A stretch of 58,615 nucleotides of DNA from a virus. Its lineage: Duplodnaviria; Caudoviricetes. Below the pieces are notes generated by a model. That model searched no databases. It saw only the letters and a list, made by a program, of their open reading frames with translations, and was not told the DNA's origin. The stretch lies in the IMG/VR virus record IMGVR_UViG_3300043015_001060, positions 1 through 58,615 of that record; one strand, 5' to 3'. Shown here one piece after another: positions 6,973 through 45,157 of this stretch (position 1 is the first letter of the stretch; every line of letters begins with the position of its first letter). The translations under genes and the position numbers were made by a program.

Positions 6973-7063
<91 letters not shown>

Positions 7064-8406: not shown

Positions 8407-9265
8407 AGGTGCTAGACCTATAAGAAATAAAGAAGTTTCTACATTTCACAAAAATTTAAAAGATTTAAAGATACCGTCTATAGAAGAATATGCACACATT
8501 TGGAGAGAGTGGCTTAATTATTCTAACACAAAAAGCCTTGAAGGTCTAGATCAATTTAAACATGCAGACTACACGCAAGGTACAAGTCAAACGTTTGATC
8601 AGTTTATTTTAAAACATAGTAAAGACAGACAAATTCTAGTACTAGAAGGTGATTTTCAATACCACGCATGTTTAGGAAAACACGTTGATTTTAAATATAT
8701 AAATCACCCACATCATTTAGAATCTCATTTATTAGGATCAGGATTACATGCTTTATTAATAAGTGCGCCGTTTAGTGATTTTGGTTGTATACACCCTGAG
8801 TTTGAGCATCTTATGAATATATGTGAGGTACATGATATTCCTGTATGCTTAGATTTAGCCTATTGGGGTATAGCAAAACACATACATATCAATCTTAATG
8901 ATTACCCTGCAATAAAAGAAGTCACATGCAGTCTTAGTAAGCCTTTCTTTACATTAGAGAATCACAGAGTAGGTATACGTTTTACAAGGGAATATGTCGA
9001 CGATGGTATTAGTATGCTAAATGAAGTAAAAATGGCAAATAATTATTCTATGGCATTAGGTGTAGAGTACATGAAAAACTTTAGTCCTGATTATAATTGG
9101 GAAAAATACGAAAACCAATACATAAAGATTTGTGAAGAACAAGATTTAGTCTGGTGTGATACAGTAATATTTGGTCTAGGTGATGATGTTAGGCATGCAG
9201 AATTTAATAGGGGAGTGTCGGGTAATTATCGAGTTTGTGTTTCTGAATGGTTAGCAGATGATTAA
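8393..9265 (+). CDS. PLP-dependent fold-type I enzyme (aminotransferase-like)
   Basis: GTSQTFD, CLDLAY (PLP-binding Asp), SLSKPF...RVG (Schiff-base Lys motif). Confidence 0.75.
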   Translation: MPAVRGARPIRNKEVSTFHKNLKDLKIPSIEEYAHIWREWLNYSNTKSLEGLDQFKHADYTQGTSQTFDQFILKHSKDRQILVLEGDFQYHACLGKHVDFKYINHPHHLESHLLGSGLHALLISAPFSDFGCIHPEFEHLMNICEVHDIPVCLDLAYWGIAKHIHINLNDYPAIKEVTCSLSKPFFTLENHRVGIRFTREYVDDGISMLNEVKMANNYSMALGVEYMKNFSPDYNWEKYENQYIKICEEQDLVWCDTVIFGLGDDVRHAEFNRGVSGNYRVCVSEWLADD

Positions 9266-9854
9266 TATAGATACCTTAATACTTATAGATTTATATAATT
9301 CGTATACCTTACCTAAAGTAAAAGATGAGAATCAACATAGAGAAATATATCATAATCTTGCTAGAGACTTAGAACAGATAATTTTAAAAACTGGATGTAC
9401 TGATGTAGTGTATGCCGCATATGGTTCACAGTGTGAACTTTCACCTGATAACACAGATAATATTTTTAGAGATAAAACAATATTTCCTTTAGACAAAATA
9501 AAAAGGCATGTGTTTTACAACATAGATGACAATACAGATCTATTTAAAGATAAAAATATATTACTTGCAGGTACATCTTTTTATACATGTATTAGATCAC
9601 GGCCATTAGGTATTAGGGCATTACTTGACTCGGAGTTGCCTAAAGGAGTTTGGTCGTCTCCTAACATCACATGCTATTACGGTAAACCTAGAGAATCGTT
9701 AGATCAAGTAGTCGAAAGTAGTAAAGGTCCTGTACATCTAAAAAGAACATCTGAAAAAGATTATAGGCAAGACGAAAACTTTAAATGGCGTAAAGCAGAA
9801 CTTACTGATTTTCACAATATCTTTAGATGTAATCATATAAATAGTACAAAATAA
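9258..9854 (+). CDS. isochorismatase/cysteine-hydrolase-like protein
   Basis: TLILIDLY and ILLAGTSFYTCI match the Asp and Cys motifs of the family. Confidence 0.5.
   Translation: MINIDTLILIDLYNSYTLPKVKDENQHREIYHNLARDLEQIILKTGCTDVVYAAYGSQCELSPDNTDNIFRDKTIFPLDKIKRHVFYNIDDNTDLFKDKNILLAGTSFYTCIRSRPLGIRALLDSELPKGVWSSPNITCYYGKPRESLDQVVESSKGPVHLKRTSEKDYRQDENFKWRKAELTDFHNIFRCNHINSTK
9836..9843 (+). promoter_or_regulatory. late promoter TATAAATA
   Basis: Exact T4 late consensus upstream of an AGGAG RBS and the amidinotransferase gene. Confidence 0.7.
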
Positions 9855-12965: not shown

Positions 12966-13202
12966 ATGGACTTTTTTCAGATTACTATTTTTATGATTTT
13001 TATTCTATTGAATTCATATTTCTCATATTCTGCTGGTAAAAAAGAGGGTATGTACCAAGGAATGATAAGTATTACTCAGTTTTTTAAGACAAAGAACGCA
13101 TTTGTTGATAAAAACAAAATAACAGGATATAAAAATTGGCCTACACCAATTAGACACATTTTTCAATCTTCTATACATATTATTGAAGATATGAAAAAAT
13201 AA
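12966..13202 (+). CDS. small membrane protein
   Basis: GGAG RBS; hydrophobic N-terminus. Confidence 0.6.
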   Translation: MDFFQITIFMIFILLNSYFSYSAGKKEGMYQGMISITQFFKTKNAFVDKNKITGYKNWPTPIRHIFQSSIHIIEDMKK

Positions 13203-18687: not shown

Positions 18688-18717
18688 AAAAGGGCAGTTT
18701 TTACTGCCCTTTTTTTT
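18688..18717 (+). terminator. rho-independent terminator
   Basis: AAAAGGGCAGT-TTTT-ACTGCCCTTTT followed by a T tract. Confidence 0.85.
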
Positions 18718-18798
18718 ATGCCATAATTAAAACTAGAGTTTACTTTTTTCTCCTTATTATGATAAATATTAGCATAATATAGCCCTTAGGAGAAAAAT

Positions 18799-19437
18799 AT
18801 GGCAGTATCAAGTGCAACAACAGAAACTAAGAGTAAGTTTGGTGTTCCTGTAACAGGTGCTACCGGTTCTGGCATTTTGATGCCAAAACTAAAGTACAGA
18901 TTTAGAGTCAGTTTCTTAAACAACTTCGGCGGCACGCCAGAAGCAAAAGTTTTGACTCAAAACGTTCAGAATGTTGGTAGACCAAAAATTACTTACGAAG
19001 AAATAATAATTGATAGTTATAACTCAAGAAGTTACCTTCAAGGTAAACATACATGGGATCAAATTACATGTATAATTAGGGATGATATAACTAACCAGGT
19101 CACTAAGCAAATAGGGGCTCAGGTTCAAAGACAACTTAACCATTTTCAACAAACAACACCAGCGGCAGGTTCAGACTACAAATTTGATATGCAAATTGAA
19201 GTACTAGACGGTGTCAACGCAGGTGCTACTGAAGTTTGGTTCTTAGAAGGCTGTTTCTTACAAAACGTTGATTACAGTGAAGGCGACTATTCTGTAAATG
19301 ATGCAGTAACAGTAACAATGACTATCAGATATGATAACGCAACTCACTTTGAAGGTGATAACGATATTAATGGTAGAACAGTAGCAGGAAATCCATTCCC
19401 GGATACAGTACCAACCAATTCAACAATTAGTACTTAA
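18799..19437 (+). CDS. tail tube protein (gp19-like)
   Basis: Follows the sheath gene; PKLKYRFRV, GKHTWDQITCIIRDD, WFLEGCF, MTIRYD; GATAAATA at 18761-18768. Confidence 0.9.
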   Translation: MAVSSATTETKSKFGVPVTGATGSGILMPKLKYRFRVSFLNNFGGTPEAKVLTQNVQNVGRPKITYEEIIIDSYNSRSYLQGKHTWDQITCIIRDDITNQVTKQIGAQVQRQLNHFQQTTPAAGSDYKFDMQIEVLDGVNAGATEVWFLEGCFLQNVDYSEGDYSVNDAVTVTMTIRYDNATHFEGDNDINGRTVAGNPFPDTVPTNSTIST

Positions 19438-32741: not shown

Positions 32742-32769
32742 TTGACAATTACAGTATTTTTGCTATAAT
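32742..32769 (+). promoter_or_regulatory. sigma70-type promoter
   Basis: TTGACA-N16-TATAAT with an extended TG. Confidence 0.8.
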
Positions 32770-32775
32770 AATACT

Positions 32776-32988
32776 ATGTTAATTAATACAGTCTTTTTAA
32801 TAGGTTTCATACTTCTAGCAGGTGTGATTATCGAAGGTGCCTGGAAGAACTTTAATATCGATCTTTCTGGTACTCCTATTTGGTTTCAACTTATTATGCC
32901 CTTTGTAGCGGTCGGATTGTATTTTTGGATTATATATTTAATCTTTTCTGGTATTGGTAATTTTTTATATAATTTTACTTATGGTTGA
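32776..32988 (+). CDS. small two-TM membrane protein
   Basis: Two hydrophobic segments; ATG 6 nt after the -10 box. Confidence 0.65.
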   Translation: MLINTVFLIGFILLAGVIIEGAWKNFNIDLSGTPIWFQLIMPFVAVGLYFWIIYLIFSGIGNFLYNFTYG

Positions 32989-33012
32989 CAATATCAAAAA
33001 CGATAGTATAAT
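32985..33012 (+). promoter_or_regulatory. sigma70-type promoter
   Basis: TTGACA-N16-TATAAT. Confidence 0.8.
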
Positions 33013-33052
33013 ATAACTATATTTTAAATTAATGCTGTGGGAGGCAATCAAT

Positions 33053-34072
33053 ATGAAATCATTTGTTAAAATTAAAAAAGGTACTTACCGTAATGCACCT
33101 ATTAAAGATGCGGTTTTTCCAGTAGTTAAGCCACTTTCATTTGGTAAGAAAGGACCGTTTGTAACGGTTGATGGTTCTGCTTTAATGGGCAGTACTGCTA
33201 AAAAAATTAGAGTGTTAGTAGCATCACCATTAGATGTAACACCTAGTTCACAGGAAGAATACAAATCCTTGATGCCAGTTAAGGAAACTACTAAGAAAAA
33301 AGAAACTCCAGAACAGGCTATGGATAGAATCAAAGGTCGTTTTGAAGTATTAGATAAGATGACCGATGCAGTTGCTAATGGTAATGTAAGAGGACTTATT
33401 GTTAGTGGTCCTCCAGGAGTTGGTAAAAGTTTTGGTGTAGAAACTATACTTGATGAGTATGAAGCAATGGCTAAATTATCAGGTCAGTCTAGAACTGAAA
33501 TGGTAAAAGGTGCAATGACACCGATTGGGTTATTTCAAACATTATTTAATAATTCGAATGCAGGAGACATTCTTGTATTTGATGACTGCGATAGTATTTT
33601 ATTTGATGAAGTTTGTTTAAACATGCTTAAGGCTGTTTTAGATTCTGGTAAAAAGAGAACTATTACTTGGAAAGCAGAGTCTAACGTTTTAAGAAGAGAA
33701 GGTATACCTGAAAGATTTGATTTTAAGGGTGGTTGTATTTTTATTACTAATGTCAACTTTGAAAATGTTAGAAGTAAAAAGATCAAAGATCACTTAGACG
33801 CACTTATGTCAAGGTGCCATTATTTAGATTTAGGTATGGACTCTACAAGTGATAAGTTCTTAAGAATTAACCAAATCGTTAGAGATGGTATGCTTAAAGA
33901 ATACGGATTCAGCAAAGAGTTCGAAAAAGAAATCATAGACTTTATGGTTTTGAAAAGTGCTAGACTTAGAGAGATAAGTTTAAGAATGGTACTAAAAATT
34001 GCTGACTTGGCTAAGATGGATTTCGATAATTGGAAATCAATTGCTGAGTCAACATGTATGAGACGTTCATAG
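33053..34072 (+). CDS. AAA+ ATPase
   Basis: SGPPGVGKS (Walker A), VFDDCD (Walker B), IFITN, ALMSR; start moved to the ATG after the GGGAGG RBS. Confidence 0.9.
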   Translation: MKSFVKIKKGTYRNAPIKDAVFPVVKPLSFGKKGPFVTVDGSALMGSTAKKIRVLVASPLDVTPSSQEEYKSLMPVKETTKKKETPEQAMDRIKGRFEVLDKMTDAVANGNVRGLIVSGPPGVGKSFGVETILDEYEAMAKLSGQSRTEMVKGAMTPIGLFQTLFNNSNAGDILVFDDCDSILFDEVCLNMLKAVLDSGKKRTITWKAESNVLRREGIPERFDFKGGCIFITNVNFENVRSKKIKDHLDALMSRCHYLDLGMDSTSDKFLRINQIVRDGMLKEYGFSKEFEKEIIDFMVLKSARLREISLRMVLKIADLAKMDFDNWKSIAESTCMRRS

Positions 34073-34076
34073 TTTC

Positions 34077-34116
34077 ATACTCCCCCTAGTGTTCAAAACC
34101 CTCCCACTTTGAGCAC
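34077..34116 (+). ncRNA. candidate structured 3'-UTR/sRNA with anti-SD loop
   Basis: Stem GTGTTCAAA/TTTGAGCAC (one G-U pair) with loop ACCCTCCCAC; preceded by ATACTCCCCCT. Confidence 0.45.
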
Positions 34117-34119
34117 TTT

Positions 34120-34152
34120 GAAACCCTCAAATTTATTTGGGGGTTTCTTTTT
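34120..34152 (+). terminator. rho-independent terminator
   Basis: GAAACCCTCAAAT/ATTTGGGGGTTTC stem followed by a T tract. Confidence 0.8.
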
Positions 34153-34161
34153 ATAAAACTC

Positions 34162-34189
34162 TTGACAATACTTAAAAGTCATGTATAAT
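34162..34189 (+). promoter_or_regulatory. sigma70-type promoter
   Basis: TTGACA-N16-TATAAT. Confidence 0.8.
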
Positions 34190-34225
34190 TAGTACTTAAT
34201 GAACTATATCTTTTTTTGGAGAAAT

Positions 34226-35965
34226 ATGAATAAATTAGATAAGAACTTTCATATCAATATGTCTCCTTTATATTTAACATTTGTTTTCATGATTTTTATG
34301 TTATGGGCAAGTGAAGTAAAAGGCGATGAGATAGAAGAAATTATTGTAACTGCTCAACAAGAGGAAACTGTGGTAGCAAATCCTGTTACATCAAGTAGCC
34401 TTATTAGTGCAATACAAGAAGACTTTACATACTCACAAGGTGGATATGGTGGTTTTGTAGGCTACAATGAGCGAGGTGCTCAAACAATACATACATCAGT
34501 TTATGTAAATGGTATACCAGCAAATGGCACAGGCAGTGGTTGGTATGATTTTGGACACGATTTTGCAAGTGGACAAACTGTAAAGGTTATTTCAGGTGCA
34601 AACGGAGTGTTATATGGCTCAGGTAGTATTGCTGGTGCAATACTTATTACTGATACAATTGATAGCGGTTTAACAGTACGGCTCGAAGACGATATAAAAT
34701 TTGCCAGAGTTGCACCTACTGATTCAATTGAATTTAGTATGATAAACGATGGCATGGATAGTGTTCGCAACGACAATGATGAAGAAGACAGTTACAAAAA
34801 TAAAACTGCAAGGTTTGATGTTGATGCTGGAGACTTTAATCTAGTAGGCAAATATACAGATTACGAATATGATTATGACAACTGTTATACTTCAAGTTTC
34901 TCTCAAAGCAATGACTGTTTACAAGACGGCGAACGTTACAATGTTGCTATTAGAAACAACATACTAACATTAGGTAGAGCATACGAAAAATCAGAATACT
35001 TTACTGAAGGTGATTCAACATACGTGAATGAAAACTATAGAGACTTTCTTAGAGTTGGTAAGCAAATGATTCTAAGTAACAAACTAAATGTTACATACGG
35101 TCTAGATGCAGAACAGCAACACTATAAAACATCATCTCCTTATAGTTCAAACATATATGAAGATGAGAACTTTGCTGTATTCATGTCTGCTAATGCTGAC
35201 TTTGTAATGAGTTACAACTTTGGATTTAGACTAGGTAACGATGATCAAAATGCTCTTAGACTTGGTATTGAAAATGGACCATGGTATTTTAACATTGGTG
35301 ACAGTTTTAGAAAACCTAACTTGTATGAAAAGTTTGGTGATGCCTATGTCGATGGCGACGAAGATCTAAAGCCTGAAGAAGGTATTGGATATGAATTAGG
35401 CTTTGGCGTTATGAGTTTATTTAGATATGAGTTCGATGAAACAATTGAGTATGTAGCAGGATATTCTACTACTGTAGTTGTAGAACCAGAAGTAAGTGTA
35501 ACAGATCCTGACACAGGTGAAGTTACTGTAACACCTGCTGTAACAGAAGATGTGTACACAAATGCCACGTACGCAAATGGTGGTGATTACATCACACAAG
35601 GTTTTAGATTTGCTAATAACTTTGGACCAGTGTATTTAAGTTTAAAGTATACAGATACTGAACAACCTAGAGTACCAAAAATATCAGGTGCTGTACAATA
35701 CAGTAAAGATGTTTATGGTGTAAATCTTAGAATTAAGTATGCAGTACAACTAGATAGAGAACCTAGTCAATATGATGTACTACCAGAAGGACAAACAAAG
35801 TTAGATGATCTTAAGAAGTTAAATTTTTATGCTACTAAAGATTTCAATAACGGATTTGTTTTATCGTTTAAGGTAGAAAATATCACAGACGAAGATGTTG
35901 AAGTAGTTCCTTTCTATGGAGTTGAAGGTACTGAATATTATTTGACATTAGGCTATAAGTGGTAG
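34226..35965 (+). CDS. TonB-dependent outer-membrane receptor
   Basis: Signal peptide, TonB box EEIIVTAQ, plug motifs VYVNGIP and GANGVLYGSGSIAGAI, FRKPNL, C-terminal strand YYLTLGYKW; GGAG RBS. Confidence 0.88.
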   Translation: MNKLDKNFHINMSPLYLTFVFMIFMLWASEVKGDEIEEIIVTAQQEETVVANPVTSSSLISAIQEDFTYSQGGYGGFVGYNERGAQTIHTSVYVNGIPANGTGSGWYDFGHDFASGQTVKVISGANGVLYGSGSIAGAILITDTIDSGLTVRLEDDIKFARVAPTDSIEFSMINDGMDSVRNDNDEEDSYKNKTARFDVDAGDFNLVGKYTDYEYDYDNCYTSSFSQSNDCLQDGERYNVAIRNNILTLGRAYEKSEYFTEGDSTYVNENYRDFLRVGKQMILSNKLNVTYGLDAEQQHYKTSSPYSSNIYEDENFAVFMSANADFVMSYNFGFRLGNDDQNALRLGIENGPWYFNIGDSFRKPNLYEKFGDAYVDGDEDLKPEEGIGYELGFGVMSLFRYEFDETIEYVAGYSTTVVVEPEVSVTDPDTGEVTVTPAVTEDVYTNATYANGGDYITQGFRFANNFGPVYLSLKYTDTEQPRVPKISGAVQYSKDVYGVNLRIKYAVQLDREPSQYDVLPEGQTKLDDLKKLNFYATKDFNNGFVLSFKVENITDEDVEVVPFYGVEGTEYYLTLGYKW

Positions 35966-40642: not shown

Positions 40643-41740
40643 ATGTATCAATTTACAAGTGAAAGTGTCAGTGAAGGGCATCCAGATAAAATAGCAGACT
40701 TGATATCCGATAAAGTAGCAACATACTTGCTGAATAATGAAATTAATAATAGGACAGCAATTGAAACGTTAGTTACAACCAATATGGTTACATTGGCAGG
40801 AGAATATAAAACTAATATAGAAGTTGATAATAACTACATAGACGAAATCGTTAGACAAACAGTTAAAGAAATAGGTTACGAACAAACAGGGTTTCATTGG
40901 AAGAATTTAAAAATCTATAATGAACTACATGGCCAAAGCGAAGACATTGCATTAGGTACAGACTCATTTGGGGCAGGCGATCAAGGAATAATGTTTGGAT
41001 ATGCATGTAATGAAAATGAACATTACATGCCATCACCACTAATATACTGTCATAAAATTTTAGAATCTTTAAGTGATAGTAGAAAAAATGATTCTGAATA
41101 TAGCATTATTAGACCAGACAGCAAAGCACAGATAACATTTAACTATGCAAATACAGGCGAACCTATCGACATTGATAAAGTATTAGTTAGTACTCAACAC
41201 AGCGAAGATAGTACACAGGATCAAGTAAAAGAACTAGTTCACAAAACAATTAGTAAAGTAGTACCAAATGAATTACTAAAAAATGCTGAGTACTTAATAA
41301 ATCCAACTGGTAGATTTGTTATCGGTGGACCAGATGGAGATACTGGACTTACTGGAAGAAAAATTATTGTTGATACTTATGGAGGAGCCGCACCTCATGG
41401 TGGCGGAGCATTTAGTGGTAAAGATCCTTCTAAAGTTGATAGAAGTGCGGCTTATATGGCTAGATGGATAGCAAAAAATATTGTTAAACGATATAATTTT
41501 AAGAATGTATTAGTTCAAATAAGTTATGCTATAGGAGTTGTGCAACCAACATCATTAGTAATCTTTACTGATGGTAAGATAAATGAAAATATAATCCAAC
41601 AGGTAAAAGATCAAGTAGATTTATCTCCGTTAGGTATTATACAAAGATTTGGATTAGGTTGTCCTACACCACTAGACATTAGTACTAACTATGGACATTT
41701 TGGTAAAGATCATTTACCATGGGAAAGAGATGATTTATAA
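40643..41740 (+). CDS. metK: S-adenosylmethionine synthetase
   Basis: FTSESVSEGHPDK, GAGDQG, GGPDGDTGLTGRKIIVDTYGG, GGGAFSGKDPSKVDRS. Confidence 0.98.
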   Translation: MYQFTSESVSEGHPDKIADLISDKVATYLLNNEINNRTAIETLVTTNMVTLAGEYKTNIEVDNNYIDEIVRQTVKEIGYEQTGFHWKNLKIYNELHGQSEDIALGTDSFGAGDQGIMFGYACNENEHYMPSPLIYCHKILESLSDSRKNDSEYSIIRPDSKAQITFNYANTGEPIDIDKVLVSTQHSEDSTQDQVKELVHKTISKVVPNELLKNAEYLINPTGRFVIGGPDGDTGLTGRKIIVDTYGGAAPHGGGAFSGKDPSKVDRSAAYMARWIAKNIVKRYNFKNVLVQISYAIGVVQPTSLVIFTDGKINENIIQQVKDQVDLSPLGIIQRFGLGCPTPLDISTNYGHFGKDHLPWERDDL

Positions 41741-44793: not shown

Positions 44794-45157
44794 TTAGTTG
44801 AATACCTCTTCGCTTTATTCTTTTTCTAATTAAATTTTGTAGGCTTGTAGTTGGACCAAAGATAATTTCTATATCTTTCATTATAAATGTTCGCAAGTAC
44901 TTTTTAAATGGTTGCATCTCATGATGTAAAAAAACATCAATAGGTAACTGTCTATTAGACTCCCACCACCATACTTCACCTAACTCTAAAAAAAGTTTTT
45001 TAATTTCTTTATCTTGTATTCGATCTAGATCATAAAATGTCATAATAGAATTATCATGATTAATTACTATGCCTATGAATTCTTGGTCACTATATGTAAT
45101 ACCGGTTAGGAAAGGATATCGTTCTTGCGTTTCTTTTATTAAAGTCTCTTTATCCAC
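44777..45157 (-). CDS. hypothetical protein
   Basis: GTG start 5 nt after TATAAATA (45163-45170, minus strand). Confidence 0.7.
   Translation of the reverse strand: MDKETLIKETQERYPFLTGITYSDQEFIGIVINHDNSIMTFYDLDRIQDKEIKKLFLELGEVWWWESNRQLPIDVFLHHEMQPFKKYLRTFIMKDIEIIFGPTTSLQNLIRKRIKRRGIQLIRKID

Follow-up and report, generated by a model that had tools for sequence, protein, structure and literature searches.

The window analysed here is a 58.6-kb piece of the Caudoviricetes record IMGVR_UViG_3300043015_001060 (the whole stretch of 58,615 nucleotides (nt); estimated completeness, 16%; G+C, 33%). On its plus strand lies a gene for an AAA+ ATPase, the mRNA of which ends in a hairpin with a C-rich loop, followed by a terminator. 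The loop carries an anti-Shine-Dalgarno (anti-SD) sequence, and its base pairing with the same gene's Shine-Dalgarno (SD) region is well supported by sequence comparison with relatives, in which SD region and loop change together. We propose that the loop probably pairs with its own SD in cis once the 3′ end has been made, limiting translation of its own gene.

The ATPase gene is a self-contained unit with a consensus promoter, a short AU-rich 5′ untranslated region (UTR), a strong SD, the open reading frame (ORF), the anti-SD hairpin, and the terminator:

32985-33012 (+), sigma-70-type promoter of the ATPase gene: TTGACA, 16 nt, TATAAT; 12 of 12 consensus positions
33019-33052 (+), predicted AU-rich 5′ UTR of about 34 nt; transcription start placed from the position of the −10 element
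33037-33044 (+), SD region GUGGGAGG, proposed 5′ arm of the long-range duplex, 8 nt before ATG 33053
33053-34072 (+), AAA+ ATPase gene, 339 amino acids (aa), stop TAG 34070-34072; phrog_1250 match and homologue of T4-type nrdC.10
34082-34089 (+), C-rich tract CCCCCUAG just before the hairpin, conserved in relatives
34088-34117 (+), predicted hairpin presenting the anti-SD; 10-bp stem, the pairs of which covary among relatives
34100-34107 (+), anti-SD CCUCCCAC, proposed 3′ arm of the long-range duplex, within a 10-nt loop
34120-34152 (+), intrinsic terminator: 12-bp hairpin 34120-34147, then UUUUU

The ATPase gene and its 3′ hairpin

The ATPase matches the profiles phrog_1250 (E = 5.4e-85) and PF00004 (E = 9.1e-6), and its P-loop, GPPGVGKS, is invariant. 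Genes annotated as nrdC.10 in T4-type phages are 33-35% identical to it over the full length (tblastn; 33% over 98% of the query), and a gene of the Pseudomonas jumbo phage PA5oct is 50% identical over 74% of the length. The predicted fold (mean pLDDT 70.5) gives only generic AAA+ matches, i.e., clamp loader, RFC, RuvB, and NorQ/CbbQ. A PADLOC search returned no match, and neither did blastn of the region against the phage collection. In relatives too, a −10 element is recognisable, roughly 25-30 nt ahead of the SD. The in-frame ATG at 33032 was rejected as the start codon in favour of 33053, since it is missing in many relatives (TTAATCCGTGGGAGG, AAAGCCGTGGGAGG).

The loop sequence CCTCCCAC at 34100-34107 is the reverse complement of GTGGGAGG at 33037-33044. 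This was the central claim of an earlier note on this DNA, which described the loop as the exact complement of the gene's own ribosome-binding site (RBS), and it is confirmed. The note gave the stem 9 bp; the local fold has 10 pairs (34088-34097/34108-34117), with an extra A-U pair and with one G.U pair among the ten, and the stem encloses a loop of 10 nt, ACCCUCCCAC. The terminator said to follow is indeed present as a hairpin at 34120-34147 and a U run. The local 3′ structure has a minimum free energy (MFE) of −26 kcal/mol (z = −5.15), and 0 of 200 shuffled sequences fold equally well.

The 8-mer GTGGGAGG/CCTCCCAC has two sites only in the window, one per strand, with 0.38 matches expected. 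At least two copies of it are found in 9 of 100 shuffles, and 34 of 5000 shuffles of the 3′ UTR reach equal complementarity to the RBS region. Among the 72 ORFs of the window, the ATPase gene ranks first by weighted Watson-Crick run and second by duplex energy. In a refined scan, which looks for SD-overlapping complements in the downstream intergenic region, it ranks first of the 21 testable genes. Taken by itself, the signal for the loop/RBS match within the window is moderate and merely suggestive. Chance, by which any CCUCC loop would complement any strong SD, can appeal to just these modest shuffle counts. It is refuted by the comparative data described below, in which at least 24 sequence forms, as well as a second gene family, retain the pairing, so that we find it barely credible.

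The duplex of the window has an energy of −14.6 kcal/mol, compared with −7.0 kcal/mol for GGAGG:CCUCC. Folding of the 1134-nt mRNA of the window, a check suggested in the earlier note, places the 5′-3′ pairing in both the MFE and the centroid structure, extended by UGCU/AGCA.

Further statements of the earlier note about C-rich sequences did not hold. Such runs were said to stand out in this DNA, but CCTCC is found 29 times in the window with 32.4 occurrences expected. A second seed, ATACTCC, does lie at 34077-34083, and GGAGTAT does precede the ORF starts at 12966 and 37431, but pairing of the two finds no support: GGAGTAT occurs 6 times with 5.55 occurrences expected, and the ATAC part is not conserved in relatives. 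A CTCCCAC at 44960 was rejected as well, lying in a minus-strand ORF and without a hairpin. The C-rich tract that precedes the anti-SD hairpin reads TTCCCCC[TC][AG]G in two clades; in RNAalifold, its CCC pairs with the GGG of the terminator, without covariation. An Rfam scan of the whole window at gathering score returned a tRNA only, and an E-value scan of 32950-34250 gave best E-values of 0.48-5, far below gathering scores.

Conservation and covariation of the pairing

Viral contigs were searched four times with protein guidance, which yielded 318 locus entries (contigs may recur between searches); at least 460 relatives were seen in one of these searches. Both flanks are available for 304 of these entries, which reduce to 116 unique pairs of 5′ and 3′ UTRs. 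In the first search, CTCCCAC is present within 80 nt after the stop codon in all 74 loci with a 3′ flank, and in the window, while the SD motif is GTGGGAG in 76 of the 80 sequences with a 5′ flank and CTGGGAG in 4. GTGGGAG and CTCCCAC are invariant islands, and the rest of the UTRs is variable.

Watson-Crick pairing of SD region and 3′ loop over 7 or more contiguous positions is kept in 107 of the 116 unique UTR pairs (run length 7 in 13, 8 in 47, 9 in 38, 10 in 2, 11 in 3, and 12 in 4), and in these 107 the duplex ends 1-9 nt before the AUG. A change of the SD region in distant relatives is matched by a change of the 3′ loop, giving 24 duplex forms. The covarying forms (SD/loop) include GCTGTAGGAG/CTCCTACAGC, CTGTAGGAG/CTCCTACAG, GGGGAGG/CCTCCCC, TGTGGGAGA/TCTCCCACA, GTGGGAGAAC/GTTCTCCCAC, TGCTGTGGGAG/CTCCCACAGCA, GGGGATGAC/GTCATCCCC, GGGGATGACTAA/TTAGTCATCCCC, GGGATGACTAA/TTAGTCATCCC, and AAAGGGGA/TCCCCTTT. 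Mapped onto the protein tree, the duplex form requires at least 32 changes, or at least 11 when only 7 coarse classes are distinguished. When partners are swapped among one representative per form (24), own partners score 514 and swapped partners 403.7 ± 20.9 by contiguous Watson-Crick run, and 0 of 20,000 permutations reach 514 (22 of 20,000 in an earlier test with 19 representatives); the representatives are related, and the permutation numbers are not strict probabilities. The earlier note had named covariation among homologous ATPase loci as a check, and homologues lacking loop or covariation as evidence to the contrary. The homologous loci have the loop, and both sites covary extensively.

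At L070-type loci, the 3′ motif CCTCCCACAGC forms 11 bp with the common leader GCTGTGGGAGG and just 8 bp with the leader of its own locus, TGTGGGAGC. This mismatch may stem from a recent change or from an exchange of the 5′ part.

The duplex ends include G.U and U.G pairs, as in TGTGGGAGG/TCTCCCACA, CTGTGGGAG/CTCCCACGG, and GGATGGC/GTCATCC. Such end pairs are permitted only in sense-strand RNA, indicating that the pairing takes place in the sense RNA and not in DNA or the opposite strand. This bears on the possibility that the motifs act as DNA, namely as an inverted repeat that flanks the gene and serves as a protein-binding site or as the recombination site of a mobile cassette. Watson-Crick covariation alone is equally compatible with such a repeat, and the gene is situated between terminator-plus-promoter composites, of a kind reportedly linked to modular shuffling in T4-type phages (PMC2839356 and PMC4122927). 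However, the G.U and U.G ends would be mismatches in DNA or in the other strand, the 5′ arm always overlaps the SD at 1-9 nt from the AUG, the 3′ arm always lies in an RNA hairpin loop with a covarying stem, and the gene has the same orientation between promoter and terminator at all loci. A role as DNA is very improbable on these grounds.

When the 107 positive 3′ regions are folded locally, the nucleotides of the anti-SD are on average 92% unpaired; it is fully unpaired in 69 of the regions, at least 75% unpaired in 97, and within a helix-enclosed loop in all 107. The enclosing stems differ between clades, yet they covary (GTGTTCAAA/TTTGAACAC, GTGTTCGAA/TTCGAACAC, GTGTTTAGA/TCTAAACAC, and GTGTCCGAT/ATCGGACAT; in other clades, GCCTA/TAGGC, GTGTTGC/GCAACAC, and GAGTG/CACTC). 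In an alignment of the window's clade (22 sequences), 5 of the 12 predicted stem pairs have changes on both sides. The position at which the anti-SD starts is bimodal, with 0-7 nt after the stop codon in 45 of the 107 regions, 9 nt in 1, and 22-76 nt in 61, the window being at 27 nt. In the 45 stop-adjacent cases, the 5′ half of the stem is inside the ORF.

Inspection by eye of L161-type loci (e.g., L162 and L180) reveals CTAACG...CGTTAG interleaved with GGTGCTC...GAGCACC in the 3′ region. These interleaved repeats could form an H-type pseudoknot around the anti-SD.

The same design is found at a second gene. A relative of 339.8 kb (91% complete) was scanned for SD-overlapping complements in the downstream intergenic region, and the top two of its 110 testable genes encode the nrdC.10-type ATPase and an unrelated AAA+ protein:

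L330:15056-16144 (-), second AAA+ gene, 363 aa; PF07728 (AAA_5)

This second gene has its own promoter-like −10 element, the SD GUAGGAG, and CUCCUAC in a hairpin loop before a terminator. Its covarying forms are GTAGGAGTAA/TTACTCCTAC, GGAGTAACAT/ATGTTACTCC, GGTAGGAG/CTCCTACC, and AGGTAGG/CCTACCT. In the clade of at least 63% identity, at least 7 pairs are kept in 12 of 13 unique UTR pairs, the remaining one being weak; in the clade of 52-55% identity, the element was found in 0 of 4. The gene is absent from the window. The SD/3′-loop design recurs in two unrelated genes of one aquatic jumbo phage lineage.

At the PA5oct homologue locus (L082, MK797984.1 248492-250444), the RBS spacer AGTAGCAT complements the 3′ arm (ATGCTACT) of a hairpin beginning 10 nt past the stop codon, a match equalled in 11 of 5000 shuffles. 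PA5oct-like phages are all identical at this locus and so offer no variation for a covariation test, and a search of viral contigs with the PA5oct protein as query found no relatives. At the T4-type nrdC.10 loci of Acj9 and fHe-Yen9-01, the genes are tightly packed without a 3′ UTR, and no comparable pairing is seen.

Action of the pairing

If the 3′ loop pairs with its own SD in cis, as we think probable, the pairing would be intramolecular and would form after the 3′ end has been transcribed. Presentation in a loop would allow fast association with the SD, and the resulting duplex would compete with the 30S subunit for it. Since the pairing needs a finished 3′ end, translation would be free only on the nascent mRNA or until the duplex forms, and the finished transcript would be throttled and perhaps destabilised. 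Each transcript would then yield a small, fixed amount of protein. At loci with the anti-SD right at the stop codon, a terminating ribosome would transiently reopen the SD. The proposed throttling fits the results described for anti-SD-like 8-mers in B. subtilis (PMC12697547) and the SD masking described for icaR (PMC3868564). The earlier note had suggested 5′-3′ fold-back silencing; pairing with the gene's own RBS is supported by loop conservation and covariation, whereas silencing is what we infer.

Several points weigh against this reading. Cis action, translational repression, and timing are all parts of it that we infer. Unless the stem opens, an 8-bp helix formed inside a loop of 10 nt is under steric strain, and a strong SD that is kept masked implies a mechanism of release or timing. 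The partner-swap test is not significant when scored by RNAduplex energy (2184 of 20,000 permutations; 809 of 5000), and C-rich terminator arms are alternative partners for the SD in that energy-based test. Whole-mRNA folds are inconsistent, with the pairing in the MFE structure of 8 of the 20 unique mRNAs folded and with probabilities of 0-0.99. Pairing is weak or absent in 9 of the 116 unique UTR pairs, of which six belong to a subclade with AAACGGGAGTAAAG in the 5′ region, two form no more than 6 bp, and one forms 7 bp including a G.U pair. The subclade with the AAACGGGAGTAAAG leader (L155, L158-L160, and L192-L200) still keeps the loop GTCATCCCCCAC, indicating that the loop can persist without an own-SD partner; no other complementary site for this loop was found in the five fragmentary contigs of the subclade. 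Metatranscriptome contigs, which are assembled contigs only, reveal neither transcript ends nor a 3′ fragment. Of the 20 runs listed, 18 are RNA libraries, and in 9 of the 20 half or more of the sampled words are present; the four examined contain only short assembled contigs, some of which cross the promoter and none of which covers 34164-34224.

Persistence of the loop in the subclade without complementarity to its own SD would also suit an alternative in which hairpin and terminator make up a small RNA (sRNA) of ~70-115 nt, freed by processing or transcribed from an internal promoter, that acts in trans on the parent SD and exerts dose-dependent negative feedback. The anatomy is that of a 3′-UTR-derived sRNA, with a seed in the loop followed by the parental terminator with its U tail, and covariation cannot separate cis from trans. 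A very weak hint comes from two studies with RNA contigs ending at 34109 and 34113; these are assembled contigs with possible DNA carry-over, and they are no evidence of transcript ends or of a small RNA. However, the discrete stable RNA is putative, and the sole internal promoter-like site, at 34002-34030, matches 9 of 12 positions, with a count of such sites at chance level (9 found, 7.7 expected). A tethered partner is kinetically favoured, and the 45 of 107 cases in which the anti-SD starts 0-7 nt after the stop codon with half of the stem in the ORF make an independent unit less natural. Action in trans is therefore unlikely in our view.

The earlier note had also proposed a 3′-derived sRNA directed at early phage or host mRNAs. 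What survives of this is a narrow form, in which the RNA acts on the mRNA from which it derives; host or other phage mRNAs are unsupported as targets. The loop keeps step with its own SD through changes with which a host target could not keep up. A further GTGGGAGG is not found in the window, and GTGGGAG occurs elsewhere in the window only inside an ORF.

The pairing might, on the other hand, have a positive or protective role. A circularised mRNA would hand terminating ribosomes back to the SD, or the duplex would shield the 5′ region and the SD from endonucleases. In the 45 of 107 stop-adjacent cases, a terminating ribosome must melt the duplex and then adjoins the freed SD, and the interaction of the 5′ and 3′ UTRs of B. 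subtilis hbs is reported to control ribonuclease action (PMC5737220). In 61 of 107 cases, however, the anti-SD starts 22-76 nt after the stop codon, beyond the reach of a terminating ribosome, and SD masking is repressive and destabilising in the experimentally studied cases described in PMC12697547 and PMC3868564. A search for a RegB-type GGAG endonuclease (PF10715) in four records, including the 91%-complete one, was silent, but control genomes were silent too, so that this silence is uninformative. We regard a positive or protective role as rather improbable, less so than a role as DNA.

Limitation of translation by the own 3′ loop in cis, the reading that we prefer, invites a broader and doubtful extension. 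Aquatic jumbo phages may possess a general closed-loop mRNA design in which a 3′ loop holds the SD and confines translation to a defined window. It would act as a co-transcriptional dose limiter or, at the stop-adjacent loci (45 of 107 cases), as a ribosome relay, in which each terminating ribosome would melt the duplex and license, or itself perform, the next initiation. Such a design would have been kept, or have arisen, in at least two unrelated AAA+ genes and may extend to PA5oct.

Phage context and known systems

The window contains T4-like replication and structural genes, including those for the tail sheath, terminase, a gp32-like single-stranded-DNA-binding protein, a UvsX-like recombinase, primase, and a DnaB-like helicase. 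It also encodes an S-adenosylmethionine synthetase with all three Pfam domains (40643-41740, +) and a tRNA-Ser(GCU) (6973-7063, +). The next gene after the ATPase gene encodes a TonB-dependent receptor-like protein (34226-35965, +), with matches to the Plug domain (PF07715, E = 4.5e-7) and to a BtuB-type C-terminus (TIGR01779, E = 1.7e-6). Its promoter is given for context only:

34162-34189 (+), promoter of the TonB-dependent-receptor-like gene; 12 of 12 consensus positions

Perfect TTGACA-16-TATAAT promoters occur three times in 1.5 kb (32742-32769, 32985-33012, and 34162-34189). The terminator at 34120-34152 and the sigma-70 promoter at 34162-34189 that follows it constitute a terminator-plus-early-promoter composite of the PeSL type. 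The arrangement resembles the promoter-terminator composites (PeSL-type) of T4-type phages, which PMC2839356 and PMC4122927 link to modular shuffling.

Other window genes with complementary sites differ from the ATPase gene in arrangement. The leader of ORF 18799-19437 contains a local hairpin (18745-18800, +), in which UUUUUUCUCCU is paired with the gene's own SD region, AGGAGAAAAA; it is an SD-masking 5′-UTR structure, downstream of the tail-sheath terminator (18688-18713). The match obtained for the tail-sheath gene in the refined scan is actually this local hairpin of the following gene and was rejected. At ORF 9258-9854 (+), the 8-nt complement TGAATGGT joins the RBS region and the 3′ flank, with the best RNAduplex energy among the 72 ORFs (−21.6); the 3′ site lies inside the next gene.

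Masking of RBSs is familiar from phage T4, in which the RBSs of genes e, soc, and I-TevI are masked in early transcripts and translation is tied to the form of the transcript. There the masking sequence is nearby, upstream in a longer transcript, whereas in the phage ATPase mRNA it is in the 3′ UTR, 1 kb away.

Long-distance 5′-3′ pairing is shared with the hok mRNA of plasmid R1, in which, as described in PMC9841398, the 3′ element fbi pairs with the 5′ element tac, and the pairing closes the full-length mRNA and keeps it untranslated. According to the same source, a different box, ucb, covers the mok SD, activation needs 3′ trimming, and the system comprises the antisense RNA Sok and a small toxin (PMC9841398). 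The likeness to hok/sok drawn in the earlier note thus extends to the 5′-3′ pairing of a full-length mRNA and stops there: in the phage mRNA it is the SD itself to which the 3′ element pairs, the product of the gene is a 339-aa AAA+ ATPase, and no small toxin ORF, antisense RNA, or 3′ trimming was seen.

In B. subtilis, anti-SD-like pyrimidine-rich 8-mers located hundreds of nucleotides downstream pair with the RBS, block initiation, and promote decay, as described by Gill et al. (bioRxiv 2025, PMC12697547). Those 8-mers are engineered and, in that account, depleted from natural genes, whereas the phage anti-SD is conserved, covarying, and placed in a dedicated loop. The B. subtilis hbs mRNA is alike in the pairing of both UTRs of one mRNA, but there the interaction reportedly governs the access of ribonucleases and stability and does not mask the SD (PMC5737220). 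3′-UTR-derived sRNAs such as NarS, as described in PMC7038943, have the seed directly upstream of the parental terminator, an arrangement also seen here; they act on other mRNAs, whereas the covarying partner of the phage loop is the SD of its own gene.

The closest likeness is to the icaR mRNA of S. aureus. The C-rich 3′-UTR motif UCCCCUG of icaR pairs with the icaR SD and blocks the initiation complex, and RNase III cuts the duplex, according to PMC3868564. Likewise, a motif in the 3′ UTR of the phage ATPase mRNA is complementary to that mRNA's own SD. The icaR 3′ UTR is long, whereas that of the phage mRNA is short, with the anti-SD in a hairpin loop before the terminator and often abutting the stop codon. 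Motif, gene, and organism are different and there is no sequence relation, so that the likeness is one of analogy; repression and RNase III cutting are known for icaR. Duplexes of 7-12 bp are short for RNase III.

Only a handful of natural long-range 5′-3′ interactions in bacterial mRNAs are known; three cases are cited in the discussion of PMC12697547, and none of these three, as presented there, rests on broad covariation. In the open-access literature searched, we found no example of such 5′-3′ SD pairing from a dsDNA phage. The phage element is short and well defined, over 100 sequence variants of it and 24 compensated forms occur in nature, and tests are made easy by promoter, SD, and terminator signals of the E. 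coli type. It could provide a clean model of the way in which protein dose is set by ribosome traffic, mRNA folding, and completion of the transcript, and possibly a compact part for capping expression per transcript. To judge from the sequences compared, what appears new is a loop-presented, terminator-adjacent anti-SD with unusually rich covariation that recurs in two genes of aquatic jumbo phages. By analogy, the element would work like that of icaR and, more loosely, like the fold-back of hok, while being a member of neither family.

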